47,549 bases of DNA, taken from the NCBI GenBank assembly GCA_014729025.1, contig WJKP01000031.1, positions 1 to 47,549 on the forward strand. Reading direction: 5' to 3'. This stretch comes from Candidatus Buchananbacteria bacterium (GTDB taxonomy: Bacteria; Patescibacteriota; Patescibacteriia; CAIXNZ01). The notes under the pieces were generated by a model, which saw only the letters and a program-made list of their open reading frames with translations, ran no database searches and was not told the origin of the DNA. A program made the translations under genes and the position numbers. Positions 4,651 to 47,400 of the stretch are shown here, piece after piece (the stretch's first letter is position 1; each line of letters starts with the position of its first letter).

Positions 4651-4682
4651 AAAATCTCCTCGTTTTATCTGCGAAGAGATTT
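4651..4682. terminator. Probable bidirectional terminator between prmC and the convergent orphan
   Basis: aaatctc...gagattt imperfect inverted repeat. Confidence 0.5.
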
Positions 4683-5133
4683 AAAAATGTTCAGGTTTAA
4701 CATCATCCGCTTCAAAGGGTATCACCCTGAGATGAAGCAAAGATTTAAACTTTTTGCCAGTCTCAACCATGGCCTTGGCTTCCATATACTTAATTAAACG
4801 ATGCAAATCCATTTTTTGAACCTTTTCACTGGCTTGAGTAAATTCTACTTTTTTATACCTTTGCTCTCTTTCCCCAATATTAATATCATCGTTTAAAAGA
4901 GCATTAATTGTCAACTTAACTTTATCGCCAACCGGCATTATTTTTAAACTGACAATACTTAATTTAGAAGTCTTTAATTGCCTGGTGCAAACAAATAAAG
5001 CTTCGATAAACAAATCGCTTAAATTTATGGCAAACTCCCCTTCGACTATTGCCGGGATTTCACAAATATTGATTGCTTTATCCTCTAAAGGAACGAGATT
5101 GACAACAATATTAACATGAAATTGTTTATGCAC
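4681..5133 (-). CDS. Hypothetical protein (SD-led, GTG start)
   Basis: 150-aa ORF preceded by AAGGAGGTGAT. Confidence 0.75.
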   Translation of the reverse strand: MHKQFHVNIVVNLVPLEDKAINICEIPAIVEGEFAINLSDLFIEALFVCTRQLKTSKLSIVSLKIMPVGDKVKLTINALLNDDINIGEREQRYKKVEFTQASEKVQKMDLHRLIKYMEAKAMVETGKKFKSLLHLRVIPFEADDVKPEHF

Positions 5134-5139
5134 GAATCA

Positions 5140-5469
5140 TCACCTCCTTTTTATTTTTTTCTTACTTTTTTTGCACTTACTATTCCAATTGGCCTGAATT
5201 AACTGTTTAACTTTCAAAATATTATCAGTATAAATATAAAACTCTTGAATTGTACCAGCACCACTGACCACCAGTTTTAAACCAGAACCGTTTTCCTGCA
5301 GTTTATATCTAGCAAGACTACTACCTCCCCTGCCAGCTTTATTTTTAATAAAACCAAGTGATATTTTATAAACCAAATCACTATTATTCAAAACTTTTAT
5401 TAATGTTTCAGCAGGCTCTATTACTGTAGTATGCGAACCAGTAAACTTACCTCCGGCAAAAGTTGGCAT
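5140..5469 (-). CDS. DUF2103-like small basic protein (SD-led)
   Basis: GGKFTGSHTTVIE, LGFIK, GAGTIQE resemble DUF2103. Start moved to ATG 5469, behind AAGGAGGTGA. Confidence 0.65.
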   Translation of the reverse strand: MPTFAGGKFTGSHTTVIEPAETLIKVLNNSDLVYKISLGFIKNKAGRGGSSLARYKLQENGSGLKLVVSGAGTIQEFYIYTDNILKVKQLIQANWNSKCKKSKKKIKRR

Positions 5470-5499
5470 AAAGCTCACCTCCTTTAAATTTAATATTTA

Positions 5500-5528
5500 A
5501 AATTAGCATAAAATATTATTTTTGTCAA
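5500..5528 (-). promoter_or_regulatory. sigma70-type promoter for the 5469/5133 pair
   Basis: TTGACA-17 nt-TAATTT with TG extension. Confidence 0.65.
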
Positions 5529-5553
5529 TTTTTAAAAAGGATAATCTCAAAGA

Positions 5554-5802
5554 TTATCCTTTTTTGATAGTAATAAGCTCAACTTCGCAATTGTCGCCAA
5601 AACATCCTATCAAAGTTTGATAATTTACAGGCTTACCATTAAGCAATAATTGTTTTTCTTGTCTGGCAATTGCCTGCATTTCATTAAAAGAAAACAAATG
5701 CCCGACTTCTTCATCCGCATAAACAATTTTCCTATAGATTTCTTCCCCATCTTCTTTAACAATAACGTTTACCATTGGATCATCAGGCCGACAATCAGAC
5801 AC
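5554..5802 (-). CDS. Small protein, possible beta-grasp (ThiS/MoaD/ubiquitin-like) fold (SD-led, GTG start)
   Basis: AGGAGGTG SD; LLLNGKPVNYQTLI...DNCEVELITIKKG pattern; the stop lies in hairpin aaaaaggataatct/agattatccttttt. Confidence 0.6.
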   Translation of the reverse strand: MSDCRPDDPMVNVIVKEDGEEIYRKIVYADEEVGHLFSFNEMQAIARQEKQLLLNGKPVNYQTLIGCFGDNCEVELITIKKG

Positions 5803-5837
5803 AATACACCTCCTGATTAAATTCTCTTTTTGATTAT

Positions 5838-6869
5838 TTAATATCTTAAATAATCCTCATCAGGAATAACCTGTATCCAAGTTATTCCCCCATTAAAAAT
5901 AATTTCATTGTTATTATTATCATAATAAATTGTTCTTTTATCTTCTGCTTCTTTTACCCACCTACTTTCAATTGTTTCACCATCTCTAAATACCCAAGCT
6001 TGCCCCTCGCCAATAGTTGTAATTCTTTTACGTCCAACATTGTCCAAAATAACCATATCATTAACTTGAACTATAATATTTTTAGCTTTTATCCATTCAC
6101 CGTCAGTCATTTGCTGTATATCATTATATTGATAACGGATATAATTATTTTCTTCACGATTATATTTCCAATCTACCCGATAATAATCATTAGTATATAA
6201 AAGTGTAATATCCTTGACTTGTTCGGGCCGATCATCTAAATCTTTATCTTTTTTATACTGCCACATCTGATAATCAGCCGGCTCTTTTAAATCTTTATCA
6301 GTTAAAGCCTTCTGAATTAATTCAGAAGAAGTATAAACATTATGAGGCGCATAGCGCCATTTATTGTCACGCCAATAATATTGGTAATTGAAAAATTGAT
6401 CTAAATTAATTAAATCGTACTGGCCACTAGCTAAAAGTCTTAAAGCCTCAGGTGCTCCCCCGACATGCATATAAACCGGTTCAAATGGTTCGATCCAATC
6501 TAAATAATACGGGCGAGCCGAACGAACAGGACCTATTTTTTCTATATCTTTATCATTGGCATAAATAGCCACAAAACGAGTTATTGACGCCTCGGTAATT
6601 GCTTCTATTACCAAATCCGCCCTATCTAACCCTGAAAGAGGCCAAGCATCAGCAGCATTTTCAATCATAATTGCCACTGGATATAAATTTTCATTTTCTG
6701 CCAGCTTTATTTCTGCTCCGTTAATTTTACGTCTGAGCAAGTCTTCTGTTTTTGGACGAAAAATATTTTCCGGATCAGTCACTTCATAATTTAAAATTCT
6801 GGCCAATGAACAGCCACTAAGTAAAAAAATTATAAGAATAAAAATGCTTAAATAAATTATTTTTTTCAT
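5838..6869 (-). CDS. DUF3048 (YerB-like) lipoprotein
   Basis: Lipobox LSGC; PVAIMIEN, ITRFVA, IGPVRSARPY, APHNVY. Start refined to MKKIIYL. Confidence 0.85.
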   Translation of the reverse strand: MKKIIYLSIFILIIFLLSGCSLARILNYEVTDPENIFRPKTEDLLRRKINGAEIKLAENENLYPVAIMIENAADAWPLSGLDRADLVIEAITEASITRFVAIYANDKDIEKIGPVRSARPYYLDWIEPFEPVYMHVGGAPEALRLLASGQYDLINLDQFFNYQYYWRDNKWRYAPHNVYTSSELIQKALTDKDLKEPADYQMWQYKKDKDLDDRPEQVKDITLLYTNDYYRVDWKYNREENNYIRYQYNDIQQMTDGEWIKAKNIIVQVNDMVILDNVGRKRITTIGEGQAWVFRDGETIESRWVKEAEDKRTIYYDNNNNEIIFNGGITWIQVIPDEDYLRY

Positions 6870-6889
6870 TTGTTTTTTTATTAAATAAA

Positions 6890-6922
6890 TACGCCCCATA
6901 ATCATTATAACTCATGGGGCAT
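6890..6922 (-). terminator. Hairpin after rplY
   Basis: gccccat...atggggc inverted repeat. Confidence 0.55.
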
Positions 6923-6938
6923 ATTTTATAAAATTATA

Positions 6939-7637
6939 TTATTTTCCTGTTTGCTCGTTTGACTCGGCTTCTTTGACTTCTTCAGATTTTTCCGGTGCTT
7001 TTTCAGCTTCCTCTGCTGTCTCGGCTGCAGCTTCTTCTCCTTCAACTGGTGCTGGCTTTTCTTCTTCCTCTTCTTCTTTTGGCTGAGAAACCAAAACAAC
7101 AAGCTCATCCTCGTCAGCAGTAAACTTAATTCCTTCCGGCACATTTAAATCTTTAATATGAATGGCATCTGAATATGTTTTTAAACTTGATAAATCTACT
7201 TGAATTTTCTCAACCTTTTCTAAGTCTTTAGGCAGACATCTAATTTCTACTTCATCAAAACTTTTAACCAAAATACCGCCTAATTCTTTAACTGCTGGCG
7301 CTTCACCAGTAAATTCCAATTCAACCTCTGTTGTAATTTTCTTACCTTCTTTAATTTCATAAAAATCAATATGAATAATATCCCCGGTCAAAGGGTCTGT
7401 TTGATAATCTTGAATTAAAATTTTAACCGGAGCCTCATCATTAATTTGTAAATCAATCAAGCTACTCGAACCGGCTTGATTATAAATTTTCCAAAATTCG
7501 TTTTTATTAACCGCCAAATTTTTATTTTCAATATCCGGACCATATAAAACAGCGGGGATTAACTCTTTTTCACGTAATTGATTAACCTCTTTACCGGTTA
7601 TTTCTCTTGATTGTGCTTTAAGTAAATAAGTTGCCAT
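6939..7637 (-). CDS. rplY: 50S ribosomal protein bL25/Ctc with acidic tail
   Basis: LREKELIPAVLYG, IIHIDFY, GGIL. Start refined to MATYLLKAQ. Confidence 0.95.
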   Translation of the reverse strand: MATYLLKAQSREITGKEVNQLREKELIPAVLYGPDIENKNLAVNKNEFWKIYNQAGSSSLIDLQINDEAPVKILIQDYQTDPLTGDIIHIDFYEIKEGKKITTEVELEFTGEAPAVKELGGILVKSFDEVEIRCLPKDLEKVEKIQVDLSSLKTYSDAIHIKDLNVPEGIKFTADEDELVVLVSQPKEEEEEEKPAPVEGEEAAAETAEEAEKAPEKSEEVKEAESNEQTGK

Positions 7638-7706
7638 AATTTTAATCTTTATATAAAATGCAAAATCCAAAATTTCGCATATTTGTTTATTAAATTTTAA
7701 TAATTT

Positions 7707-8057
7707 CTATTTAATTAACTGTTTTACAATATTTTTTTTTGTTTTACTTGCCAAAGCTTGATGTATCTCAATAATATCATCGGCTCTTAATTTAAGCTTA
7801 TTTTTAAATTGAAAAACATCATCAAAAGTCAAATCAGTAATCAAACCAACCGAGCTTAAACCATTAGCAGTTTTTGTCAATAAAGCCAAAATAAACCCCT
7901 GACAATTATTACATTGAATATGAATCAACTGACTATCATCACGATCATCAATAATTTTAGCCTTAACCGGATTTAAATCTGATTCACAAAACGGACAATA
8001 AGCAATCATACTGACATCTTCATCTGAAAAATAAGGGTATTTATCAAAATTTTCCAT
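7707..8057 (-). CDS. Hypothetical Zn-ribbon protein
   Basis: CPFC...CNNC, GLITDLT; upstream TTGACA-17-TAAGAT. Confidence 0.8.
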   Translation of the reverse strand: MENFDKYPYFSDEDVSMIAYCPFCESDLNPVKAKIIDDRDDSQLIHIQCNNCQGFILALLTKTANGLSSVGLITDLTFDDVFQFKNKLKLRADDIIEIHQALASKTKKNIVKQLIK

Positions 8058-8115
8058 AATTTGTAATAATTTATAAAAGTATCTTAAATAATTTTTATAA
8101 ATTTGTCAACTTTAA

Positions 8116-9219
8116 TTAGTTTCTAACAGCGATTGATTCTATTAAACCGATTAAAATCATATTGGCAATCAAGGAACTACCGCCATAACTAATAAACGGC
8201 AAAGTAATGCCAGTAATTGGTAAAAGCCCCAAATTTCCGCTAATATTAACTACTAATTGACTAAAAAATAAAATACATACCGAAACAATTAAATATAAAG
8301 CAAAATTATTATGTGTTTTTTTAGCCAATTTAATCAAACGATAAAATAAAAAACCAAATAAAGCTAAAAGTAAAATTATACCTGCCAAGCCTAATTCTTC
8401 AGCTAAAACAGCAAATATAAAATCGGTCTGACTCTCCGGTAGAAATTTTAACTGGCTTTGGGAACCCAAAGCCAAGCCTTTACCAAAAATCTTACCAGAA
8501 CCAATCGCAATCATTGCCTGCGTAATATTATAACCACTCCCCAATGGATCAGAAGATGGCTCAAGAAAAACCAAAACTCTTTCTTTTTGATAATCTTGAA
8601 AAATAAAAAACCATAAAATCAAACTACTAATAACCAATAATACTACGATAAATAATAAGTGACTCTTTTTTATACCGGTTAATAATATCAAGCCTACCCA
8701 AATTGTAAATAATATTAAAGCTGAACCAAAATCAGGCTGTAAAACAATTAAAGCCATTAATAAAATAACGCCCAGGCTGCTTAAAATCAAATATTTTAAT
8801 TGACTTATATATTTAGCCTTATCAGAAAAAAACTTACTTAAAAAAATAATCAAAAATATTTTCACAAATTCAACTGGCTGAAAAGAAAAAAAACCAAAAT
8901 CAAACCAGCCAGTGGTACCCCTGATGGTTTTACCAAAAAACAAAACCGCAATCAATAAACCAGCGCCAATAATATATAAGGGCCAATTGAATTTTATTAA
9001 AATACGATAATCAAAAAATACAGCTAAAGTAAAAATGATAAAAATGCCTAAAATAAAAAAAACTATTTGTTTATTGAAATTTAATAAATTTTGCGCACTT
9101 TGACTACCGATAGCCACACTATAAAGCAAAGTCAAGCCTAAAATTATTAAAAAACAAATAGTAATAAATAAAAGCCAATCAAATTTTTTAAAAAATAAAT
9201 TTATTTTTTTAAATTTCAT
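8116..9219 (-). CDS. rodA: Rod shape-determining SEDS protein
   Basis: FQPVEFVK, QPDFGSA, DPLGSGY, LPESQTDFIF, GITLPFISYGGSS. Confidence 0.93.
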   Translation of the reverse strand: MKFKKINLFFKKFDWLLFITICFLIILGLTLLYSVAIGSQSAQNLLNFNKQIVFFILGIFIIFTLAVFFDYRILIKFNWPLYIIGAGLLIAVLFFGKTIRGTTGWFDFGFFSFQPVEFVKIFLIIFLSKFFSDKAKYISQLKYLILSSLGVILLMALIVLQPDFGSALILFTIWVGLILLTGIKKSHLLFIVVLLVISSLILWFFIFQDYQKERVLVFLEPSSDPLGSGYNITQAMIAIGSGKIFGKGLALGSQSQLKFLPESQTDFIFAVLAEELGLAGIILLLALFGFLFYRLIKLAKKTHNNFALYLIVSVCILFFSQLVVNISGNLGLLPITGITLPFISYGGSSLIANMILIGLIESIAVRN

Positions 9220-9239
9220 AAAAAAAACTCTAGCCCCAA

Positions 9240-10082
9240 CTAAAAATCCAAATAAACATCGTCATCCAAAATATTAACCTCTGGAACCACTTCGACACTG
9301 GTAATTCTCGGCAACGACTGAAAAAAAGTTGATTCTAATTTTTTTGACTGATTATTTTTTAAAGCACCTGAAGAAATCTGATTAATAGCGACTATATTAT
9401 CAGCTGATTTTAAAAGTATCAAAAGTTTGATATTTTTATAATTATAAGCCGTATTATTATAAACAGTAAAAAGCACTCGACTAACTGGCAATTCCTGACC
9501 AACACCTAATTCTGAAGCTGGGACATATTCAACATTTTGAATATCAAATCTTAATCTTAACCTTTGCAAACTAACATAATCAATTTCTTTTTGCCAGACA
9601 ACATTTGATAAATCCAAACGAGAAGCCAAATCACCATCGGGCACAGATAAATCCACCAATCTTTTTGTTTCACCAGGTAAAATAAAACTGCTTCTTGTCT
9701 CAGTTAATTCATCGTTAACTTGAAATTTATAATTAAAACTAGCCCACCATTGAACATTTGGATTGGCTATTTCCACCATTAAATCATAATTTTCATTATT
9801 TGGTAAAACTTTAATCTGACCGACCTGAATATCTTGCGGTAAATTAGCTACTCTCAAATTAGGATAATCCTGATTAATTGTCTCTATATTATTAAGCATT
9901 ACCTGATATTCGCTCCGATAAATGTACAAATTAAAAACTAATAAATAAATTAAATAGATTGCCAATAAAGCATTAACAATAATTAAAACTATTATTAAAA
10001 TCCTTTTTAATAATAGTTTATTGGTTACATACCAATAAGCTAATTTAAGGCTTTTCTCAGACATTGGTTTTCCATCAACCAT
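9240..10082 (-). CDS. Hypothetical single-pass membrane protein
   Basis: 280-aa ORF, N-terminal TM then beta-rich ectodomain; upstream TTTACT-17-TATAAT. Confidence 0.8.
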   Translation of the reverse strand: MVDGKPMSEKSLKLAYWYVTNKLLLKRILIIVLIIVNALLAIYLIYLLVFNLYIYRSEYQVMLNNIETINQDYPNLRVANLPQDIQVGQIKVLPNNENYDLMVEIANPNVQWWASFNYKFQVNDELTETRSSFILPGETKRLVDLSVPDGDLASRLDLSNVVWQKEIDYVSLQRLRLRFDIQNVEYVPASELGVGQELPVSRVLFTVYNNTAYNYKNIKLLILLKSADNIVAINQISSGALKNNQSKKLESTFFQSLPRITSVEVVPEVNILDDDVYLDF

Positions 10083-10150
10083 AATTGTTATATAAATAAT
10101 TTTATAAATAAATTATAGCATTTTTAAATTTTTAAGTAAAAATATTTTGC

Positions 10151-10179
10151 TTGAATTAATCTGCAAGGAATGCTATAAT
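10151..10179 (+). promoter_or_regulatory. gyrB promoter
   Basis: TTGAAT-17 nt-TATAAT with TG; it lies inside the ORF-track N-terminal extension, which argues for a later start. Confidence 0.65.
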
Positions 10180-10236
10180 AATCACAACAAAGCGATTATA
10201 CACAGTCGCTTATTATCTTTATTAATCAAAAAAATA

Positions 10237-12336: not shown

Positions 12337-12352
12337 TCCTAATAAAATAAAA

Positions 12353-12390
12353 AAAAGAGCCTTCTTATAAAAAGAGGGCTCTTTTGTTTT
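12353..12390. terminator. Bidirectional terminator after gyrB
   Basis: aaaagagccttctt/aagagggctctttt with A/T tails on both sides. Confidence 0.75.
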
Positions 12391-12413
12391 TTTACTTTGC
12401 CTGACTTTAAAAA

Positions 12414-12557
12414 TCAATCAAGCAAAGCCAAACCTTCATCAGCTAAAATCAGTTCCCAGCAAGAAATCAAATATTGATTAATTTCTTGAATATCCCGAGC
12501 TATCTCTTGACTCAAACTATCGGCTTTTTCAAGTAGCGTATTTACTTCTCTTCTCAT
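12414..12557 (-). CDS. 47-aa hypothetical protein (SD-led; not in ORF track)
   Basis: MRREVNTLLEKADSLSQEIARDIQEINQYLISCWELILADEGLALLD, preceded by AAGGAGGAG just after the upstream stop. Confidence 0.65.
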   Translation of the reverse strand: MRREVNTLLEKADSLSQEIARDIQEINQYLISCWELILADEGLALLD

Positions 12558-12569
12558 TCTTCTCCTCCT

Positions 12570-12848
12570 TTAGTCTTGTTTTGCACCTTCCAGCTCCAAA
12601 ATAGTCAACAGCTCTTCACTGCCATCAGCATAAACCAATTTTAAACGCCCGCCTTGTTTGTGGTGTTTAAAGAGCATAAAAAATAATTTTAGAGCTGTTC
12701 TGACTAAAAAAGATAGAGAAAGTCCCAGCTCTGTAATCATTTCTTCATAACAACCTATTTCACCTCGCCCTAAACGCACTGTCACTGTTCGCCTATCCAA
12801 TTCCCGATTTGATTTACTTTTCCCGCTTTTCGCCTCAGCTTTTTGCAT
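12570..12848 (-). CDS. Ribbon-helix-helix (CopG-like) DNA-binding protein (SD-led)
   Basis: RTVTVRL strand, then helix-GLSLSFLVRTAL helix; AAGGAGG SD. Confidence 0.65.
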   Translation of the reverse strand: MQKAEAKSGKSKSNRELDRRTVTVRLGRGEIGCYEEMITELGLSLSFLVRTALKLFFMLFKHHKQGGRLKLVYADGSEELLTILELEGAKQD

Positions 12849-12935
12849 AATTCGCCTCCTTGGTTATTAAAACAATACAAAACATAAATCAACTACTATT
12901 AGTAAAACATTTTAAATTACAAATGTAAATAAGAA

Positions 12936-12970
12936 TGAAAAGCGGGCGGATTTCAAAGAAATCCGCCCGC
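12936..12970 (-). terminator. Terminator after the C1 peptidase
   Basis: 13-bp perfect stem gcgggcggatttc/gaaatccgcccgc followed by TTTT on the minus strand. Confidence 0.8.
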
Positions 12971-12979
12971 CAAGTATTT

Positions 12980-13942
12980 TTAAAAAGGTGAGCCAAACAT
13001 ATCCTTGAGCCATTCGGGCCAATTTTCGTACCATTGTTCCACACAAGTCTTTTTGTAAAGATCTTTGGTGCCTTTCGCGTCAACAGCTGACCAGCAGGAA
13101 AAGCATTTCCTGCGGAAAAACTCGTAAGGCAGCCAGCCGTAACCGCGTACACCCCAGTCCCTACCCCAGCTGTTACGAATCAAAAAAGCTTGCAATTCGT
13201 CGTGCCAGCCAACAATCAAGGTCGCATGGGCACCGATCGGTCTTTCGCCTGGCTGGGGCATTTCAATCTTGCCATCACGACCGACCCAACGCCAGTTTTC
13301 GTAAACATAAGTGGCAATTGGCAAGGGCCCGTAGGTTAAAATGGCCTGTTTGACATTATCAATGGAACGAGGATGCACTGCGGCATAAGCGGAAATCTTA
13401 TAATTTACCAAAATTTCTTGCAATTTTTTATCGTCTTTTTTAGGCTCATGAGTAAGCTGGCTAAACTCTCGTTCTGGCAAGCAACCTCTTTTTTGGAGCA
13501 ATTTTAAACCGGCATGGACATGAAGTCCGTCACGACCAGAATCAGCCAAACCAGCCAATTCCCTGGCTTCTTCATAAAGCCATTCTTCGCTAAAATCAAG
13601 ATGCTTGACTAATTCCATATAAACAAAATAATCAATCAAAGCGCTCAGGCTATAAGCAGTGCACCAAGGCATTTGGCCTTGATGTTCAATACGTGGCATT
13701 TTCTTGCGCAGATCAAAACGAACCTGTCTTTTTTGCTCATTAAGATCTGGTACCGCTGTTGGCATAAGCTTGAACAAGCCAGCTCTGTCGCCATAATCGA
13801 TTTCAATTAATGGTACATTGCTTTTAAACCTCAGCTTAAAATCACGCGGATCAACTGGATCTTTTAAGACCGAGGGGTCAAGCAACATGCGCTTAAATGA
13901 ATTAAGCGACAAATCTTTTACAGGAACAGCCGAATTGCCCAT
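12980..13942 (-). CDS. Papain-like C1A cysteine peptidase (SD-led, GC-richer than flanks)
   Basis: QGQMPWCTAYS (Cys), GAHATLIVGW (His), IRNSWG (Asn), DPRDF; AAGGAGG SD. Confidence 0.9.
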   Translation of the reverse strand: MGNSAVPVKDLSLNSFKRMLLDPSVLKDPVDPRDFKLRFKSNVPLIEIDYGDRAGLFKLMPTAVPDLNEQKRQVRFDLRKKMPRIEHQGQMPWCTAYSLSALIDYFVYMELVKHLDFSEEWLYEEARELAGLADSGRDGLHVHAGLKLLQKRGCLPEREFSQLTHEPKKDDKKLQEILVNYKISAYAAVHPRSIDNVKQAILTYGPLPIATYVYENWRWVGRDGKIEMPQPGERPIGAHATLIVGWHDELQAFLIRNSWGRDWGVRGYGWLPYEFFRRKCFSCWSAVDAKGTKDLYKKTCVEQWYENWPEWLKDMFGSPF

Positions 13943-14002
13943 TATTATTCCCTCCTTTTGGTTTGTTGGTTCTTTTTAATTGCCAATGTACTTTAATTTT
14001 GC

Positions 14003-14067
14003 AAATTAACATAATTCAATCTAAAAGTCAAGTTTAAACTTGACAAATCTTGGATATAGTATAAAAT
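14003..14067. promoter_or_regulatory. Back-to-back promoters (peptidase on minus, secE operon on plus)
   Basis: Minus TTGACT-17-TAATTT (14031-14003); plus TTGACA-16-TAAAAT (14040-14067). Confidence 0.6.
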
Positions 14068-14202
14068 ATAATTATAAACAAGACCTGGCAAGGGTCTTTT
14101 TAAAATAGATTTTCACGAAAACAAGAATATTTTACCAACATACTAAATTCTTAATATTCGTACATTCGTATTTATTAGTAATTTAGTAAATTATAAAAAT
14201 TT

Positions 14203-14397
14203 ATGAAAAATCCTATTAAAAAATTGATTCAGTATATTAAAGACTCTATTACTGAATTAAAAAAAGTTACCTGGCCCACTAAAAAAGAAACCACTAATTA
14301 TACTTTATTAGTAATCGGCATTAGCTTAGCAGTAGCAGCTTTCATTGGTATTATTGATTATATTTTGGCTTTGGGTGTTGAACAAATAATTAAATAA
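14203..14397 (+). CDS. secE: Preprotein translocase SecE
   Basis: ELKKVTWPT plus one TM, upstream of nusG. Confidence 0.95.
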   Translation: MKNPIKKLIQYIKDSITELKKVTWPTKKETTNYTLLVIGISLAVAAFIGIIDYILALGVEQIIK

Positions 14398-14420
14398 AAA
14401 CAAATTTAACCATAAAACCT

Positions 14421-14963
14421 ATGGCAAAACAAATATCAAGAGGTAAAAGATGGTATGTGATTCACACTTATTCTGGTTATGAAGAAAGTGTAGCTGATAA
14501 TTTAAAACAAAGAATTGAAACAATGGATATGGAAGATAAAATTTTTGATGTTGTTATTCCTACAGAAAAAAAGATTAAAATAAAAAACGGTAAAAGAAAA
14601 ACAGTAATAGAAAAAGTTTATCCCGGTTATTTAATGGTTCAAATGATTGTAACTGATGATTCCTGGTATGTTGTTCGTAATACACCAAATGTAACTGGTT
14701 TTGTCGGTTCAGGTACCACCCCGACCCCGGTTTCTGAAGCAGAAGTTAAAGAATTATTCAAAAGAATGGGGCAAGAAGAGCCTAAGTTTAAAATTGATGT
14801 TTCCGAAGGTTCCCCAGTTAAAATTGTTGACGGCCCCTTCAAAGGTTTTGAGGGCAAAGTTACTGATATTGATGAAGCTCGCGGAAAAGTTAAAATTTTG
14901 GTTTCTATGTTTGGCCGTGAAACCCCAGTCGAGCTTGACTTCTTACAAATAAAAAAGATATAA
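14421..14963 (+). CDS. nusG: Transcription factor NusG
   Basis: WYVIHTYSGYE, VRNTPNVTGFVG, KOW, FGRETPVEL. Confidence 0.97.
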   Translation: MAKQISRGKRWYVIHTYSGYEESVADNLKQRIETMDMEDKIFDVVIPTEKKIKIKNGKRKTVIEKVYPGYLMVQMIVTDDSWYVVRNTPNVTGFVGSGTTPTPVSEAEVKELFKRMGQEEPKFKIDVSEGSPVKIVDGPFKGFEGKVTDIDEARGKVKILVSMFGRETPVELDFLQIKKI

Positions 14964-15037
14964 TTGGTCCAGGCTTGGTTAATAAAACTGCTAAGGCTTG
15001 ATTGACCACCCAATCAAACTATCAATAATTAAAATTT

Positions 15038-15463
15038 ATGCCAAAAGAAATACTAACAACATTAAAATTACAAATCCCTGCCGGACAAGCCAATCCGGCA
15101 CCGCCTGTTGGCCCTGCGCTAGGTCAGCATGGTTTAAATATTCAGGATTTTTGCAGTCAATTTAATGAAGCAACAAAAGATAAAAGCGGTGATATTATTC
15201 CGGTTGAAATCACAGTATATGAAGACCGTTCATTTGACTTTAAATTAAAAACACCACCTGCTTCAGCTTTATTAAAAAAAGCTGCCGGCATAAAAAGCGG
15301 TTCAGGGAAACCTTTACAAGAAAAAGTCGGTAAAGTAAGCAAAGCCCAAATTCGTGAAATAGCAGAAATCAAACTACCTGATTTAAATACAGATGATCTT
15401 GAAGCTGCTACAAAAATTATTGAAGGTACTGCCCGGCAAATGGGTTTAACTGTTGAAGGTTAA
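15038..15463 (+). CDS. rplK: 50S ribosomal protein uL11
   Basis: [17 protein letters not shown]. Confidence 0.98.
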
Positions 15464-15490
15464 AATTATTAAAAAATAAATATTAAAAGT

Positions 15491-15519
15491 GTGGAAGCTT
15501 AATTAAGCGTTTGCACCAC
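15491..15519 (+). promoter_or_regulatory. uL1-binding autoregulatory RNA site
   Basis: GTGGAAGC...GCACCAC resembles the GTGGGAG...ACCAC L1 site found between rplK and rplA. Confidence 0.7.
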
Positions 15520-15547
15520 GCAATACACTACTACCCCTTATTAAATT

Positions 15548-15577
15548 AACTGATGTATTGCGTGCATCAGTTTTTTT
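15548..15577 (+). terminator. Conditional terminator upstream of rplA
   Basis: aactgatgta-ttgcg-tgcatcagtt plus T run; an 11-bp competing helix forms with 15517-15527. Confidence 0.7.
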
Positions 15578-15615
15578 AATTTAAAAAATTAATTAATAAT
15601 AAAATTTTTAAAATT

Positions 15616-16305
15616 ATGTCTAATAAAGCGCATTCACAAAGATTTATGGAATTAAAAGATAAAATTGATAAAAATACTGCTTATCCACTTGAAGAAGCCA
15701 TCAAACTTGCTAAAGAAACATCAACTACCAAATTCGATGCTTCTATTGAAGTTGCGATAAAAACCGGCATTGATCCTAAAAAAAGCGATCAACAAATCAG
15801 ATCAACTGTTTTAATGCCTCATGGGACTGGTAAAAAAATAAAAATAGCAGTCATTGCACCACCGGCCAAACAAAAAGAAGCCAAAGAAGCAGGGGCTGAT
15901 ATTATCGGTGGCGAAGAATTAATTGATAAAATAGCTAAAACTAAAAAAATAGATTTTGATGTTTTAATTACTGTACCGGAAATGATGAAAGATTTGGCAA
16001 AAATCGCTAAAATTCTAGGCCCCAAAGGCTTAATGCCTAATCCTAAAACAGAGACCGTGACACCTAATATCAAAAAGACGGTTAAAGATTTAGCCAAAGG
16101 TAAAGTCAGTTTTAAAAATGATGATACAGGTAATATTCATATAGCAATCGGGAAAGCCTCTTTTGACGATAAAAAACTAATTGAAAATTTTCAAGCTTTT
16201 ATGGACGCCTTACAAAAATCTAAGCCAGACTCGATCAAAGGTACTTTTATTAAAAAAATAGTTATTTCTTCTTCAATGGGACCTGGCATTCAAGTCCAAA
16301 TTTAG
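15616..16305 (+). CDS. rplA: 50S ribosomal protein uL1
   Basis: KFDASIE, PHGTGK, ILGPKGLMPNPK, SSMGPG. Confidence 0.98.
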   Translation: MSNKAHSQRFMELKDKIDKNTAYPLEEAIKLAKETSTTKFDASIEVAIKTGIDPKKSDQQIRSTVLMPHGTGKKIKIAVIAPPAKQKEAKEAGADIIGGEELIDKIAKTKKIDFDVLITVPEMMKDLAKIAKILGPKGLMPNPKTETVTPNIKKTVKDLAKGKVSFKNDDTGNIHIAIGKASFDDKKLIENFQAFMDALQKSKPDSIKGTFIKKIVISSSMGPGIQVQI

Positions 16306-25407: not shown

Positions 25408-25462
25408 AAGGAAATATATATATTAATTTATTTATAATAATCGTATCCAAATAGGAGGGAAG

Positions 25463-25696
25463 ATGAAAATCACTTTTGGGTTATGTTTATTTTATCTGTT
25501 ATTCGGGCATTACCTAGCAATGAGTGGCATCAAATTATTGCAGAAAGACAACCCAATCAAAAGCAGGTTCTGGAGAATTATTTCATATGAAATAATGGCA
25601 ATTCTCTGGCTACCAATCATCGCAGCTTACATTGGCCTCATATGTATAATATATACAACGCTTATCTGTTGCGTAATTATACTAATACCGTATTAG
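25463..25696 (+). CDS. Small membrane protein (SD-led orphan)
   Basis: AGGAGG SD; hydrophobic; promoter TTGACA(25401)-17-TAATTT. Confidence 0.7.
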   Translation: MKITFGLCLFYLLFGHYLAMSGIKLLQKDNPIKSRFWRIISYEIMAILWLPIIAAYIGLICIIYTTLICCVIILIPY

Positions 25697-25800: not shown

Positions 25801-25871
25801 ATTAAAATTCGTTTTATTTTATAATTAAGAATCAAAAGGCAAAATACCTTTTAAAAAACAAGGAGGACGAG

Positions 25872-26192
25872 ATGATTTACTTAGGAATTGGTATTTATTT
25901 GGGCATTGGTATTTTTTTCACAATAGTAATGTGGCTTAATTTCGCGACCCACTGCAAAAAGTACTTTCGGTTAGCGATTTTCGCTGTCATTATCACGCTG
26001 ACTTGGGGCTACTTTTTCATCGCCTTTGGTGTGGGCGCCTTGGGGGATTTGATTTCTAATCTAACCACGAAAAAGGAGCCGTTTTTGAGCAAAATTCCAA
26101 TTGCTCTTTATCTACTCTTACTGAACAAGATGTATCAAAGCCTTTATGGCGTTTGGGGAGGACAATTTCTGAATAATGCCGAGACGCCATAG
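25872..26192 (+). CDS. Small membrane protein (SD-led orphan)
   Basis: AAGGAGG SD; hydrophobic; promoter TTGACA(25792)-17-TATTTT. Confidence 0.7.
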   Translation: MIYLGIGIYLGIGIFFTIVMWLNFATHCKKYFRLAIFAVIITLTWGYFFIAFGVGALGDLISNLTTKKEPFLSKIPIALYLLLLNKMYQSLYGVWGGQFLNNAETP

Positions 26193-39807: not shown

Positions 39808-40791
39808 TTACTCTCTTTTTTTTAACAAATCATAAAGTATAGAAGCAATGGTAAAAGAATTATGCCTGATTAAAGCGCGGGTCAAATTATCACCTTTAAC
39901 TTTATGAGGAATTTTTTGACTAAGTAAATTTTTACCTAAAAATTTTGTCTTACGATCCTGAAAATCTTGTTCTGAAAATTCTACTGGATATTCACCTTCT
40001 TGAGCATAAGACAGCAAAAAATCTTCAGCCGGTTTTTGATTATTGTATATCACATAATCAAAAACTTCGTTTTGCCCCATATACTTTTCCAAAAGACAAA
40101 TAAAATCAATTATTCGAAAACCATGAGTATGATTCTTTTGAGTCATTAGGTTACAAATATAAACCTTAATAGCGCGGGAATCATTAATCGCGTCGCTAAT
40201 ATTTTCTACCAGCAAATTGGGTAAAATACTGGTATAAATATCACCGGGACAGATAACAATTAAATCACTGGCTAAAATCCGCTCGATTGCCCGCTGATTA
40301 GCCGAAGGATAAGGTTCAAAACTAATAGATTCAATCGGCTGATTTTTCAAATCAATTTGATGTTCACCGATAATCACCTGACCGTCAGGTGTTTTTGCTA
40401 CCAAACGAACATCGTCCAAAGTTACTGGGATAACTTCGCCTTTAACCTGCAATAATTCTCCGGCTCTTTGCAAAGCAGTTTCAAAATCATCAGTAATTTG
40501 CTGCAAAGCAGTAATAAATAAATTGCCAAAACTTTGCCCGGCTAAGCTGCCTTCTGTAAAACGATGATTAAAAAGTTGACGCCAAATATCTTCTGAATGA
40601 GATAAAGCAACCAAGCATTGCCGGACATCACCAGGCGGTAAAGCGCCCAATTCATCACGTAAGACTCCGGTTGATCCGCCGTCATCAGCCATGGCCACAA
40701 TTGCAGCCAAATCTAAATCCGGATAATTTCTTAAACCGGTTAAAATTGTATAAGAACCAGTACCACCGCCAATAACAGTTATTTTTTTCAA
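39808..40791 (-). CDS. yvcK: YvcK/GlmR (CofD-like) gluconeogenesis/cell-wall factor (SD-led, TTG start)
   Basis: IGGGTG, DDGGSTG, PPGDVRQCL, PGDIYTSILPNL; AAGGAGGTGA SD; own TTGACA-17-TAAATT promoter (40854-40826). Confidence 0.88.
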   Translation of the reverse strand: MKKITVIGGGTGSYTILTGLRNYPDLDLAAIVAMADDGGSTGVLRDELGALPPGDVRQCLVALSHSEDIWRQLFNHRFTEGSLAGQSFGNLFITALQQITDDFETALQRAGELLQVKGEVIPVTLDDVRLVAKTPDGQVIIGEHQIDLKNQPIESISFEPYPSANQRAIERILASDLIVICPGDIYTSILPNLLVENISDAINDSRAIKVYICNLMTQKNHTHGFRIIDFICLLEKYMGQNEVFDYVIYNNQKPAEDFLLSYAQEGEYPVEFSEQDFQDRKTKFLGKNLLSQKIPHKVKGDNLTRALIRHNSFTIASILYDLLKKRE

Positions 40792-40834
40792 TCCGCTCAC
40801 CTCCTTATAAAAATTTTATTATTTTAATTTAATA

Positions 40835-44009: not shown

Positions 44010-44013
44010 AATT

Positions 44014-44041
44014 AAAAAACCGACTATTTAGCCGGCTTTTT
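44014..44041 (-). terminator. Terminator after the DUF389 gene
   Basis: Minus aaaaagccggcta-aa-tagtcggtttttt. Confidence 0.7.
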
Positions 44042-44079
44042 AATTTCCCTCTCCTACAAATTTTAATATTATAAAAAAT

Positions 44080-44778
44080 CTATTTATTATTTCCATTTTT
44101 AGCTTCCGCAAGTTCTTTAGCTTCTTCCTTTAATTCTTTTTGAACAGCCTTTTTCTCAGGATAAAAACCCAACAAAGAAAAAACTATCAAGCTGCCCAAT
44201 AAAACCCCCAATAAATTAGCTAAAAATAATTCAAGTGAACCTGATAATACATGTAAATTCCAAAAAGAAATACCAATACCAATTACGACCAAAGGCGGCA
44301 ATAAAGCTATAGCAACCGCTACTCCGACCATTCTTTCAGAAAATTCATCTTTTGAGGTAGTAAAAGCAGCTGCGATACCTGACGCCACAGCTACCCCAAA
44401 ATACATATAATTAGAAAACATTCTGGCAATAATTTCATCATTAAGTTCTTTATTAATTACGAAAAATGAAATAACAACCGAAATAGCAACAACAAATAAA
44501 ATTGATGCGCCCAAAACTTTTAAAGATCTGGCTATTAATTTGGGATTAGCCATACTAATCCCCATACTAATAGCTAAAATTGGTGATAATAAAGGAGTTA
44601 CAATCATACCACCAATTACAATCGCAACATTATTCATTAAAATCCCAAAAGTCGTTATTATGGCTGAAACAATTAAAATTAAAAAAAAGGCGTGAGTTGG
44701 TGAACTTGATTCAATTAATTTTTCTATGGTGTCTCTTTTTTGTTTAGAAGTCAGTTTTAACAATTCAATTTTAGGCAT
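44080..44778 (-). CDS. DUF389/TIGR00341-like membrane protein
   Basis: IVIGGMIVTPLLSPI, GVAVAIALLPPL, LFLAN. Confidence 0.85.
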   Translation of the reverse strand: MPKIELLKLTSKQKRDTIEKLIESSSPTHAFFLILIVSAIITTFGILMNNVAIVIGGMIVTPLLSPILAISMGISMANPKLIARSLKVLGASILFVVAISVVISFFVINKELNDEIIARMFSNYMYFGVAVASGIAAAFTTSKDEFSERMVGVAVAIALLPPLVVIGIGISFWNLHVLSGSLELFLANLLGVLLGSLIVFSLLGFYPEKKAVQKELKEEAKELAEAKNGNNK

Positions 44779-44919
44779 AAAGTAATTATTATAAATTAAT
44801 TTATTACTAATCTAATTATAGCAAAATATTTTAAAATATTCAAAGCTTGATTTGGCATTTTTTATTTGTTAAGCTAAGATATAAGTTCCAATGCCTATTT
44901 AAATGTAAAGGAGGGAAAA

Positions 44920-45120
44920 ATGGCTAAAAAGAATAAAAAGCAAAAGACAAAAAGAGCTTGCTTAAGATGCGATCGCGAATTTATGTCAGATGGTATTTAT
45001 AATCGCATCTGCCCTAACTGCCGAGAAGCAAATTCCAATATCGGCATAATGGAACCTCATGAACAATTAAATTATCCTGGCTGGGGGGTAAGCAGAAGAT
45101 CTCTTTCAGACGAATCATAA
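44920..45120 (+). CDS. Small Zn-finger protein (SD-led)
   Basis: RACLRC...NRICPNC; AAGGAGG SD; TTGATT-17-TAAGCT promoter; terminator aaaacttccc/gggaagtttt. Confidence 0.75.
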   Translation: MAKKNKKQKTKRACLRCDREFMSDGIYNRICPNCREANSNIGIMEPHEQLNYPGWGVSRRSLSDES

Positions 45121-45142
45121 AACTTCCCGTTAAGGGAAGTTT

Positions 45143-46813
45143 TTATTTATTTAATTTTTTTAATTGACCCTTATTAAATATTAAAATATCCAATCTATCT
45201 TGTTCAAGTAATTGCAAATATTCATTCTGCAAATAAAAACGAATTTGGCTGGACGTATAATTATCATAATCATAACCCCATAATTCAAATACATAATTAT
45301 CCTTATATTTAGTCGGCAGACCAGTCACCCAATTGCCTTGATCAAAAGTTTCTGCCAACCAACCACCGGTCGGATACGAGCCCCAATATAAAATTTTCTG
45401 ATGCATATTTTGCCTTGTTAAATACAAATAAACTTGAAGTGTCTTGCCTTCAAATTGATAATTCGGATAATATAATCTGATAGCCAAATCAACAGCATTG
45501 CGAAACACCTGGGCGCCTTCCAAATTATCAGGCAAACTAATAAATAATAAAGTTTTATTTTGTTCATTTAAATTAATTACCTGGTGAAAATCTTGCTTAA
45601 TAACTTTTTCAGTTAATTGTCCTGCCAAATGCCAGGTGTAATTTTTATTTATTAAAGAAACAGAGAAATAAACCAGCAAACCAATAATCGCAAGATTGCG
45701 TAAAAATTTATCTTTTTTAATTTGCCAAATCAATAAACTCAATAAAATGCAAAAAACCACCGAAGGTAAATAATTATAACGTTCGCCTTCATTGGTAAAA
45801 TGGCCAAAAGCCAGAGGTAAAACAGGTAAAATTAAAATAATATAAAAATCCAGCAAAAAAGCCAGTTTAAATTTATATTTTCTTAAAACCAATAAAATCA
45901 AACTAACAATTAAAATTAATAATAAAATAAAAAATAATTTATTGGCCATAAAATAATCAGTCAATAAAATCCGCAAATCGCCATAAAAAAATAAATTAGT
46001 CAATAAAGCCACCAACATTTTAAAAATTTCAGTCAAATTAATTCTAAAAGTTTCCTCAGCATAATAACCGAAAAATAAACCAATTGCCCAATATCTGGCT
46101 AATAAATAAAATAATAAAATTGCAAAATAACCAATTACTCTGGTAATAATTTCTCGTAAAAAAAAATTGTTTTTACTTATTCCTTCATACAATTCCCAAA
46201 CTAAAATTAATAACGGCAAAGTAATGGCCAGTTCCTTGGTTAAAATTGCAATTATAAAACTTAGAATTGAAATAACAAGAAAATAAAACTTTTCTTTTTT
46301 ACGAAATAAAATATATAAATAAAAAGACAATAAATAAAAAAAAGCGGCTAATGGATCGCCCACTGCGGCTATCCAAATAATTGCCTCGCTATGATTGGGT
46401 AAAATAGCAAAAAACAAAGCTGCCAAAATCGCAACTTTATTTTTTTCTTTATAATTTTCAAATAAGGTCAAAGTCAATAAATAAATTAAAAAACAAACAC
46501 CAATATGAAAAATTAAATTAATTAAATGGTAACCAAGAGGATTTAAGCCAAATAAATTATAAGCTAAACTAAAAATCAAATTAAACATGGGCCGATAGCT
46601 GCCGCCCACGCCCTGCTCGCCAAAATAATTAGCTGAAAAATAATCAAGCAAAGAATACTGGCTGGTTTTGGTTGAATAAATCCAGTCAAAATCATCAGAC
46701 AAGAAGAAATCATTTAAATTAATTGCAAAAAAAGCTAGATTTAGCAAAATTAGACCTAAAAACAACCAAATATGAATTTTATTTATTTTTAACCCCACTC
46801 TTGACAAAATCAT
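45143..46813 (-). CDS. Multi-pass GT-C-type glycosyltransferase-like membrane protein
   Basis: SDD, YRP, YHLINL..H, HSEAIIWI, KE, ERYNYLP motifs; start uncertain. Confidence 0.8.
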   Translation of the reverse strand: MILSRVGLKINKIHIWLFLGLILLNLAFFAINLNDFFLSDDFDWIYSTKTSQYSLLDYFSANYFGEQGVGGSYRPMFNLIFSLAYNLFGLNPLGYHLINLIFHIGVCFLIYLLTLTLFENYKEKNKVAILAALFFAILPNHSEAIIWIAAVGDPLAAFFYLLSFYLYILFRKKEKFYFLVISILSFIIAILTKELAITLPLLILVWELYEGISKNNFFLREIITRVIGYFAILLFYLLARYWAIGLFFGYYAEETFRINLTEIFKMLVALLTNLFFYGDLRILLTDYFMANKLFFILLLILIVSLILLVLRKYKFKLAFLLDFYIILILPVLPLAFGHFTNEGERYNYLPSVVFCILLSLLIWQIKKDKFLRNLAIIGLLVYFSVSLINKNYTWHLAGQLTEKVIKQDFHQVINLNEQNKTLLFISLPDNLEGAQVFRNAVDLAIRLYYPNYQFEGKTLQVYLYLTRQNMHQKILYWGSYPTGGWLAETFDQGNWVTGLPTKYKDNYVFELWGYDYDNYTSSQIRFYLQNEYLQLLEQDRLDILIFNKGQLKKLNK

Positions 46814-46829
46814 AATAATATGTTATAAT
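46801..46829 (+). promoter_or_regulatory. Consensus sigma70 promoter
   Basis: TTGACA-17 nt-TATAAT with TG. Confidence 0.8.
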
Positions 46830-46850
46830 TATAAAAAGGATAAGTTAAGG

Positions 46851-46967
46851 CCCAGCCTCGCATTGGGCGAGGTGGCTGGGAGCTACACTGGCTCTTTGGC
46901 AAATGTCGGGGAACCGACAACAAATTACTCCGCTCGGAAGAGTGAGTAACCTTTCCCGGAAGGGAAA
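46851..46967 (+). ncRNA. GC-rich five-hairpin leader or sRNA with three GGAA tetraloops
   Basis: Hairpins at 46851-46880, 46880-46894, 46904-46919, 46925-46949 and 46952-46967. Confidence 0.5.
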
Positions 46968-46980
46968 AAAGGAGAAGAAA

Positions 46981-47400
46981 ATGTTGGAAAAAATCAAAAA
47001 ATCGACGATGGCGGTTATTACAGGAGTAATCCAGTTGAACAGCTGCTATGATAAGCAGCGTCATAAAATCAAGACACTGGAGTCATCGTTGAATAAACTC
47101 GGAAACCCGGGCTTTACTTTTGAAGACCCGGAACCGTTTTACCAAGACGCCGAAGATGAATTTTATTTAATCTTCATCTTCGGCACAATCCGATGGACGA
47201 CTCTGGATGCTGACACTGGCTATTCCAGTAGCTTATCGGATATTTCACTCAGCATGGTAGAACCGATTCTAGGTCGTCTTCCAAGCTTCCTAGAAGCCTA
47301 CCAAAAGGATCTGGAAAAAACGGAAGAAGAAAACAAAATGAGCCTGGAACGGCTCAGCGAAGTCGTTGAAGCGCTCAACGCCGTCTTCAGCGACAAATAA
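46981..47400 (+). CDS. Hypothetical protein (SD-led, GC-richer)
   Basis: AAGGAG SD before ATG 46981; 139 aa; terminator gcgagga/tcctcgc-tttttt follows. Confidence 0.7.
   Translation: MLEKIKKSTMAVITGVIQLNSCYDKQRHKIKTLESSLNKLGNPGFTFEDPEPFYQDAEDEFYLIFIFGTIRWTTLDADTGYSSSLSDISLSMVEPILGRLPSFLEAYQKDLEKTEEENKMSLERLSEVVEALNAVFSDK

Follow-up and report, generated by a model that had tools for sequence, protein, structure and literature searches.

The DNA considered here is the whole of contig WJKP01000031.1 (47,549 nucleotides (nt), hereafter the window), which is contig C19 in our numbering of a Candidatus Buchananbacteria metagenome assembly (G000; 1.08 Mb in 61 contigs, about 32% guanine plus cytosine (GC), rated 97% complete, with a single 16S gene found). 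Its genes are marked for translation in two different ways. The recognisable core genes have A/T-rich leaders that lack a Shine-Dalgarno (SD) site and usually end in T-ATG, whereas a scattered set of mostly short genes is preceded by a strong SD. A first-pass annotation of the window had drawn this distinction and had listed eleven SD-led sites. All eleven are present as described: ten have AGGAGG 4-9 nt upstream of the initiation codon and the eleventh, at 46981, has AAGGAGA. Three starts are not ATG (GTG at 5133 and 5802, TTG at 40791), and the description of the genes as mostly short orphans agrees with the absence of a Pfam family from eight of the 11. The SD-led units, with a run of SD-less core genes for comparison, are as follows (lengths in amino acids, aa; ORF, open reading frame).

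4681..5152, minus strand: SD-led orphan, 150 aa; GTG at 5133; leader AAGGAGGTGATG, its SD within the 3' end of the upstream gene; no Pfam match.
5140..5487, minus strand: SD-led DUF2103-like gene, 109 aa; ATG at 5469; leader AAGGAGGTGAGC; PF09876, E 5e-7.
5554..5816, minus strand: SD-led orphan, 82 aa; GTG at 5802; leader CAGGAGGTGT; no Pfam match; contig break in the sister genome G001.
12414..12572, minus strand: SD-led ORF, 47 aa; ATG at 12557; leader AAAGGAGGAGA.
12570..12863, minus strand: SD-led orphan, 92 aa; ATG at 12848; leader CAAGGAGGCGA.
12980..13958, minus strand: SD-led papain-family (C1) peptidase, 320 aa, 44% GC; ATG at 13942; leader AAAGGAGGGAA; PF00112, E 3.8e-13.
14203..16305, plus strand: SD-less example, secE-nusG-rplK-rplA; A/T-rich leaders ending T-ATG.
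25450..25696, plus strand: SD-led orphan ORF, 77 aa; ATG at 25463; leader TAGGAGGGAAG; no Pfam match.
25859..26192, plus strand: SD-led orphan ORF, 106 aa; ATG at 25872; leader CAAGGAGGACG; no Pfam match.
39808..40808, minus strand: SD-led CofD/YvcK-family gene, 327 aa; TTG at 40791; leader TAAGGAGGTGAGC; PF01933, E 1e-88.
44906..45120, plus strand: SD-led gene, 66 aa; ATG at 44920; leader AAAGGAGGGAAAA; PHROG 13335, function unknown.
46964..47400, plus strand: possible ORF, 139 aa, gene status uncertain; ATG at 46981, preceded by AAGGAGA; no Pfam match; kept outside the gene set.

None of the 40 non-SD gene models of the window has an SD, and 33 of the 40 have T at position -1. Core gene names such as prfA, gyrB and secE (and those of the run at 14203..16305) are labels of the first-pass annotation; Pfam models confirm only some genes, among them miaA, RtcB, archease, LexA and a MiaB-like enzyme, and Rfam and tRNA scans of the window gave no match. 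Among public sequencing records, no run and no RNA data set was listed for positions 4600-14400. That several SD-led genes are GC-richer is borne out by the bin at 13-14 kb (43.7% GC, against about 32% overall). The 77-aa ORF has atypical codon usage and, like the 106-aa ORF, was missed by a codon-score caller. The AAGGAGA at 46981 is the sole Watson-Crick match to the native 16S tail among the 11 sites. Opposite-strand reading frames overlap in this region (46810-47400), 46810-47064 on the minus strand against 46903 or 46981-47400 on the plus strand, and neither has a family match.

How far are these units shared with relatives? The genomes compared (0.5-1.5 Mb) include G001, the sister genome; G002, of another genus in the same family; and the further relatives G004 and G008. 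All are kin rather than independent samples. Four window genes have counterparts at 27-95% identity in one or more of G001, G004 and G008, and every one of these keeps the SD. The 150-aa orphan retains it in G001 (82% identity, AGGAGGTGATG) and G004 (27%, AGGGGGTGATG); the 47-aa ORF has GGAGG before ATG in G001, G004 and G008 (43-51%); the 92-aa gene keeps AGGAGGCG in G001 (95%) and G008 (68%); and the DUF2103-like gene is SD-led in G001 and G004. The latter occurs in one of 200 other genomes of the taxonomic class (G034), where it is also SD-led (GGGAGG-5-GTG). The 66-aa gene has a partial reciprocal best hit in G002. The first-pass annotation had asked whether such families are inherited vertically together with their SD. 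The C1 peptidase has a true ortholog in G001 only (89% identity), and for the CofD/YvcK gene BLASTP of the G002 gene models gave no match. Among 201 genomes of the class the peptidase is full-length in G000 only, beside three weak partial matches to domains of giant proteins, and the sister genome's contig was its sole match among genome contigs. That contig (locus L185) is publicly titled uncultured Gammaproteobacteria bacterium; with 87-89% DNA identity to G000 the title does not fit and is probably a labelling error.

The two classes extend through the genome. AGGAGG occurs 13 times in the window, and 10 of the copies lie directly before a start codon (4-9 nt). The number itself is unremarkable (shuffled sequences have a mean of 8.6, and 13 was reached in 11 of 100 shuffles), so the signal lies in placement and not in number. 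In all of G000, 173 of 309 AGGAGG copies have a start codon 3-11 nt downstream that opens an ORF of at least 30 aa, compared with 17 of 168 for AGGAGC, 25 of 198 for AGGAGT and 16 of 309 for the complement CCTCCT; the native-type AGGAGA gives 44 of 246. Pairing energies tell the same story. ORF models were made with our own caller (codon log-odds and greedy non-overlap; 1043 models, 85% of G000), and duplex energies were calculated for positions -20 to -3 against a 16S tail, with the position of the mature 3' end assumed. The distribution over 1031 models is bimodal, not unimodal: 93 lie at or below -11 kcal/mol, five between -11 and -9, and the remainder resemble background. An in-gene control has five at or below -11 kcal/mol, and the SD-less genes lie at or below that control. 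Under a strict definition (GGAGG ending 3-11 nt upstream of the start) the SD-led genes number 175 of 1082 or 158 of 1084 in G000, depending on the version, and 169 of 913 in G002 (893 kb, 16 contigs, 41% GC), the one other genome put through the complete pipeline after adjacent pieces had been rejoined. These counts are approximate, as 45 starts were shifted downstream to an SD and chance alone gives an SD-like match at about 1.8% of candidate starts deep inside genes. If, for every gene, the 5' candidate with the best SD is taken as the start, about 70 further genes are gained; this is close to the chance yield (1.8% per candidate), and they are not counted.

Class membership is inherited. 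Of the 158 SD-led genes of G000, 20 have a reciprocal best hit in G002, at a median identity of 41%; of the 926 SD-less genes, 555 have one, at a median of 62%. In 17 of the 20 pairs both members are SD-led, and in 542 of the 555 both are SD-less, leaving 3 and 13 discordant (Fisher p 7e-22); most of the 13 appear to be wrong start calls at TTG or GTG codons inside genes of the GC-richer G002. Sixteen of the 17 SD-SD pairs are syntenic, with orthologous core genes flanking, and their proteins are 25-62% identical; the pyrF ortholog in G002 is the sole non-syntenic pair. GC content at third codon positions (GC3) in the 16 syntenic pairs is 0.347 in G000 and 0.576 in G002, whereas 99 SD-less orthologs at no more than 50% identity have 0.24 and 0.434. 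SDs and a GC3 excess conserved in such diverged syntenic orthologs are therefore maintained features and not decaying relics. The arrangement is also family-wide: AGGAGG-N4-9-ATG exceeds its reversed control 8-20-fold in 14 of 14 family genomes (111-260 sites each) but mostly 1-4-fold, and in several about 1-fold, in 27 genomes of other families. The division into two initiation classes that the first-pass annotation proposed for the window is thus bimodal, heritable and general in the family.

Might a chimeric metagenome bin or mis-called starts mimic two classes? The assembly is a metagenome in 61 contigs, some short contigs are rich in SD-led genes (6 of 8 in C26, 4 of 7 in C38, 14 of 26 in C12), and the starts come from our own caller. 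SD-led genes, however, stand between core genes on the same contigs, as in the window, the same places are occupied in four other assemblies, the independently assembled 16-contig G002 shows the same split, and the statistics on motif placement are independent of how genes were called. An artefact of this kind is scarcely credible.

The SD-led genes differ from the rest in much besides their leaders. They are shorter (median about 130 aa against about 240 aa in G000), GC-richer at all three codon positions (GC3 0.327 against 0.244 in G000 and 0.526 against 0.425 in G002), atypical in codon use and twice as rich in cysteine (2.0% against 1.0%, in both genomes). Pfam matches at E <= 1e-3 were found for 43 of 168 (26%) but for 89 of 140 length-matched SD-less genes (64%). 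The units tend to stand alone. They form 110 runs, comprising 78 singles, 20 pairs, nine triples, two of four and one of five; the median upstream gap is 126 nt against 45 nt, and the 5' regions are GC-richer with more stable predicted folds. The first-pass annotation had credited them with their own promoters and terminators and an antisense setting. The two signals are indeed about twice as frequent as at SD-less genes: promoter-like sites in 16-21% against 8-10%, with near-consensus sigma-70-like promoters in 16% against 8% in G000, and terminator-like hairpins after the stop codon in 25% against 13%. Orientation antisense to both neighbours is found in 33 of 143 SD-led but 33 of 819 SD-less genes.

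The matched SD-led families include pyrB, pyrC, pyrD, pyrF, several pur genes and aminotransferases, and also GGDEF, PilZ, HD and receiver domains, ParB, an IS110 transposase, C1 peptidase and CofD/YvcK. A pyrimidine-biosynthesis run on contig C53 (loci L072:18266-19949 and L073:5-4106) is SD-led throughout; its members are orotidine monophosphate decarboxylase, dihydroorotate dehydrogenase, a dihydroorotase-like gene and aspartate carbamoyltransferase. PHROG matches were found for 22 of 150 SD-led proteins. Beside some of the units lie two short intergenic stretches (window positions ~5463-5565 and ~14103-14199) that match many contigs of G001, G004 and G008 at 73-97% identity, which suggests a dispersed repeat or a shared regulatory element.

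What, then, marks the starts of the other genes? In 496 conserved SD-less ATG genes of G000 the base at -1 is U in 78%, A in 14%, C in 7% and G in 1%; A makes up 57-59% at positions -6 to -4, and G 1-6% across the last dozen positions. SD-led genes of G000 have A in 60% and U in 22% at -1. The contrast recurs in G002, with U at -1 in 73% of SD-less genes (n=469) and 10% of SD-led ones; as a control, U precedes 32% of internal Met codons. The starts of secE, nusG, rplK and rplA were read in 30 related genomes, and T stands at -1 in 56 of 56 cases in the same family and 49 of 58 in other families (105 of 114 in total), with one leader SD-like by eye (rplA of G035). The U(-1) rule holds throughout the class. 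In the initiator tRNA (G000:C29:580-653) the CAU anticodon is followed directly by A, at position 37 (...CAU-A-A). U33 is nearly universal in tRNAs, and bacterial initiators usually have a third G:C pair in the anticodon stem. The tRNA in question reads ...GAGG-CC-CAU-AA-CCUC..., with C as the base 5' of the anticodon (anticodon position as given by ARAGORN) and A:U in place of the third G:C pair. Leaderless transcription was considered for the SD-less class and set aside on a reading of the leaders within operons: only 23 nt separate secE from nusG, and the A/T boxes stop 2-4 nt short of the ATG.

Pairing of U(-1) with A37 was demonstrated in Escherichia coli (Hollerer and Jeschek, 2023, PMC10018350; Esposito et al., 2003, cited therein). 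The U before AUG and the A37 are the same in the two cases. The effect in E. coli is that of a modest modulator, whereas the frequency of U(-1) in the present SD-less genes (73-78%) and its avoidance in SD-led ones resemble part of the main start signal. For Bacteroidia, PMC6847099 emphasizes A at -3 and -6 instead.

The 16S tail is itself unusual. In G000 it reads GGACCATCTCCTTTCT (...GGACCAUCUCCUUUCU), as it does in 8 of 8 family genomes with an assembled tail; the variant is also written CCAUCUCC. In other families 10 of 13 tails read GGATCACCTCCTTTC and three of 13 read ..ATCTCC. The family anti-SD core is therefore UCUCC, a one-base variant of CCUCC with which GGAGG pairs through a terminal G.U. 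The first-pass annotation had looked to a CCUCC at the 16S 3' end and to bS21; the former is not intact, and the gene for the latter (rpsU) is present in divergent form. The Pfam model PF01165 gives no match in G000 and stays below threshold in eight of 13 family genomes (19.5-22.8 bits, cut-off 27), with clear matches in other families. Absence of bS21, as Pfam alone would have it, was rejected on a tblastn match to a sister genome's 72-aa ORF that locates rpsU at G000:C1:19825-20040 (97% identity). A profile of seven such proteins, which have an invariant C-terminal YLKKIGK, matches bS21 chains in the PDB at E 3e-9 but the Flavobacterium johnsoniae chain 7jil_z at E 0.27 only, so the tyrosines cannot be equated with those of F. 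johnsoniae bS21.

Prominent among all the leaders is that of rpsU. In G000, G001 and G002 it reads AAAGGAGATGG (AAAGGAGAUGG) and forms 11 of 11 Watson-Crick pairs with the tail CCAUCUCCUUU. GGAGA is present in 10 of 10 family rpsU leaders and in no non-family leader read, about 13 of 18 of which have instead an extended SD, G(A/G)GGTG(A). Paired with the native tail, the leader has a calculated free energy of -17.3 kcal/mol, as against -9.7 for the canonical one, and rpsU is the strongest native-tail binder of all G002 genes. These findings support an anti-SD that would be functional in this family and to which rpsU appears uniquely tuned. The leaders of bS18 and bS6 are SD-less with U(-1). 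In bS6 (G000:C21:1972-2589), a protein of 205 aa, the 90-residue S6 domain is flanked on its N- and its C-terminal side by long acidic extensions. Avoidance of internal SDs was also looked for by synonymous-codon shuffling. GGAGG occurs at 0.65 and 0.73 times its expected frequency, but the depletion is as strong in unrelated controls (CCTCC 0.40-0.46, GAGAG 0.58, GGTGG 0.73), and the test is therefore unspecific as to a free tail.

What the sequences show is two gene classes with their own start signals, properties and inheritance, together with a variant tail and an rpsU leader that matches it. The explanation that we favour, and consider moderately probable, is that two heritable initiation regimes operate in one genome and that rpsU is an exception. 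The first regime (about 85% of genes, including all recognisable housekeeping genes and many lineage-specific ones) would be SD-independent and would rely on a leader that is poor in G, rich in A and has U at -1; this U most likely pairs with A37 of the initiator tRNA and so lengthens the codon-anticodon helix. The second (about 15%, some 160 genes) would be driven by a strong GGAGG 4-9 nt upstream that pairs with the cell's own 16S tail, its last G as a G.U wobble. It appears to serve a flexible, fast-evolving gene pool of short, GC- and cysteine-rich, patchily distributed genes, often antisense single-gene units, whose SDs may be kept by selection. As their 5' ends are GC-richer and more structured, these genes are probably unable to use the A/U-rich, SD-independent route. 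The gene rpsU would be the one core-gene exception, with an 11-nt SD exactly complementary to the variant tail, and this may provide a bS21 feedback loop of the Flavobacteriia kind.

Several observations weigh against this reading. The accessory SDs fit the wrong tail: 152 of 158 in G000 and 157 of 169 in G002 pair better with the canonical than with the native tail, with mean energies of -13.2 against -10.4 kcal/mol in G000 and -12.5 against -9.95 in G002. SDs that evolve under the native tail with AT-biased mutation would be expected to change from G to A, and the retained G is unexplained. AGGAGA stands before starts in 18% of cases in G000 (barely enriched) and 15% in G002 (not enriched), as against 10-15% for AGGAGT and AGGAGC. 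After GGAGGTG the ratio of A to G is 16:1 in G000 and 8:3 in G002, which fits the canonical tail but is not significant given the A-rich background. A G kept at 25-62% protein identity in an AT-rich genome points to selection or to gene flow from canonical-tail lineages. The persistent GC3 excess of the 16 syntenic pairs is not predicted by a two-regime model. The rpsU covariation is confined to one clade and thus represents one evolutionary event, and G033, a separate lineage with a C-to-U tail, retains GGAGG before rpsU (AAAGGAGGTGG). Finally, gene models and starts come from our own ORF caller and not from a standard gene finder.

Are the SD-led genes simply recent acquisitions from SD-using donors whose anti-SD is canonical, so that SDs, promoters and composition alike would be unselected relics on their way to decay? 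Atypical composition and codon use, the better canonical-tail fit and a patchy distribution (20 of 158 with reciprocal best hits, the C1 peptidase, the DUF2103-like gene in one of 200 other genomes) are what such an import would leave. The set also contains biosynthetic operons, the IS110 transposase and ParB; biosynthetic operons are, to our knowledge, uncommon in this phylum. Relics, however, should not persist as these do. The SD is conserved in 17 of 20 orthologs, 16 of the 17 being syntenic at 25-62% protein identity, and window orthologs keep theirs down to 27%. The GC3 excess is of equal size in two genomes whose base composition is 9 points apart (32% and 41% GC), which therefore gives no fixed donor signature. 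SD-less genes without an ortholog in the other genus have a GC3 of 0.244, the same as conserved SD-less genes, and thus the composition shift tracks the SD and not low conservation. A donor search among 5.8 billion proteins, made for one gene, the C1 peptidase, gave no close match: its best relatives other than the sister's are at 76% and 42% identity, and the next at no more than 33%. As to vectors, the first-pass annotation had seen no phage gene near the units, and across the genome PHROG head, tail, connector or lysis families are matched by none of the 150 SD-led proteins; mobility genes among these proteins (unit neighbours were not screened individually) are one transposase and one ParB. 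Near-identical donors and SDs lost with time of residence, the pattern that the first-pass annotation associated with plain acquisition, are thus not what the peptidase and the ortholog pairs present. Of that alternative, the patchiness and the atypical composition stand, and the decay of the SDs does not. For the conserved subset passive import appears largely refuted by these sequence comparisons, and as a general account it is improbable.

The first-pass annotation had also entertained genes intended for a host ribosome, that is, cassettes built for a foreign, canonical-anti-SD translation system and used, for example, in a host after DNA transfer. The better canonical fit of 152 of 158 SDs is the sole hint of such a destination among the SDs themselves, and sigma-70-like promoters, twice as frequent at SD-led genes, would suit it as well. 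But the pyrB, pyrC, pyrD, pyrF and pur enzymes would be of use only to the cell that carries them, the wobble-paired duplex with the native tail still has about -10 kcal/mol, and the genes are fixed at syntenic chromosomal sites. We know of no mechanism for such a transfer to a host in this phylum. The idea is left unsupported, and we regard it as very unlikely.

More serious is the proposal of a distinct ribosome state. Ribosomes that carry bS21 would, as in Bacteroidia, hide the tail and read only SD-less genes, and those free of bS21 would expose it and read SD-led mRNAs. The rpsU mRNA would win the competition, and the roughly 160 wobble-matched genes would form a regulon that rises when bS21 is limiting, as in a given growth state or life stage. 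The configuration resembles that of Flavobacteriia: the core is SD-free, a variant anti-SD is retained, and rpsU has an extended, exactly complementary SD that differs at the paired position from the one in canonical-tail relatives. Jha et al. (2021, PMC7797042) report such covariation where an alternative anti-SD has C1535U as well. Extended-SD rpsU leaders are common in the class, as the 13 or so of 18 non-family leaders indicate. Moreover, only rpsU is re-tuned, and the accessory SDs bind less strongly (a mean of -10.4 kcal/mol, as against -17.3 for rpsU), in line with a hierarchy headed by rpsU. On the other side, the bS21 profile that matches other chains at about 1e-9 reaches the F. johnsoniae chain only at E 0.27, the internal-SD test is unspecific, and a strong SD on 15% of genes, including whole pyrimidine and purine operons, would be odd for a minority ribosome. 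The divergent bS21 gene and its leader, the exact complement of the variant anti-SD, thus stand in favour of the first-pass proposal, while tail masking and the response of the 160 genes come by analogy only. Gating by ribosome state is plausible but distinctly less probable than the two-regime reading above. The same tentative standing applies to its fullest form, in which bS21 occupancy would switch between a 'private' U(-1), A-rich code of the core and an SD-led accessory regulon of about 160 genes with rpsU as governor, C1535U having detuned the accessory set at once and rpsU having compensated.

How do the two regimes compare with systems already described? The closest is SD-blind translation in Bacteroidia (Jha et al., 2021, PMC7797042; McNutt et al., 2023, PMC9976891; Naeem et al., 2026, PMC13000453), which likewise combines an SD-less core, a retained anti-SD and A-rich leaders. 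An rpsU with an extended SD is common to both, as is, according to PMC7797042, a C1535U tail matched by an exactly complementary rpsU leader. In Bacteroidia and Flavobacteriia, however, rpsU is essentially the sole strong-SD gene, whereas here 158-175 others have GGAGG; for native-type GGAGA alone the rpsU-only pattern of Flavobacteriia nearly holds, with no clear GGAGA enrichment elsewhere. The present organism belongs to another phylum, bS21 in G000 is too divergent for Pfam, the accessory SDs are of canonical and not native type, and the strongest leader signal is U(-1) rather than an A at one of positions -3 and -6. In Bacteroidia the tail is sequestered by bS21 (Tyr54), bS18 (Lys37, Phe50, Asn56) and a C-terminal bS6 helix; genes for all three proteins were located here.

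In Parcubacteria, Tsurumaki et al. (2022, PMC9297842) counted genomes as being without the anti-SD motif CCTCCT and supposed that SD helices do not form. The present family has TCTCCT and not CCTCCT, and it would therefore fall in their anti-SD-less group. Unlike in that reading, the tail is not lost: one core base is changed, and it can pair with GGAGG by wobble and with the rpsU leader perfectly. We argue that SD-anti-SD helices probably do form here, judging from the placement and conservation of GGAGG at about 160 genes and from the rpsU complement. The same source links its group to loss of uL1; the rplA of the window is a label of the first-pass annotation, unconfirmed by a family model.

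Horizontally acquired islets offer a third comparison. They share with the SD-led units an atypical composition, patchiness, their own promoters and terminators and insertion between core genes. The SD-led units differ in being mostly single genes (78 of 110 runs), with almost no mobility genes and no donor for the one gene tested, and in that the SD and the GC3 excess are kept in syntenic orthologs, with no amelioration. For Patescibacteria or the candidate phyla radiation, the literature searched, supplements excluded, yielded no account of SD-led accessory genes, of a U(-1) rule or of rpsU covariation.

SD-poor translation with bS21 feedback has so far been worked out only in Bacteroidia. 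Its signature in unrelated, ultra-small Patescibacteria, where the mutation lies at the same position of the tail and rpsU has a leader changed to fit, suggests a circuit that is ancient or convergent. The new element is a sizeable, heritable accessory class with canonical-motif, strong SDs and a distinct composition over long divergence, and it provides a concrete, testable case of one genome with two initiation codes. There are practical aspects as well. Gene finders with one start model will mis-call the starts of one class, the presence of an SD is a possible cheap marker of the flexible gene pool, and published claims of Parcubacteria 'lacking' an anti-SD need qualification.

Two further observations were made in passing. 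The SD-less control sample contains a bacteriorhodopsin-like protein (PF01036, E 3e-23) on contig C59 of G000 (locus L086:2939-3553). In G002 a programmed +1 frameshift site, CTT TGA C, is retained in prfB (C4:46430-47561), and GGGAG lies 3 nt upstream of it; prfB of G000 (C59:46885-47950) is a single frame with CTT GAA at the corresponding place.

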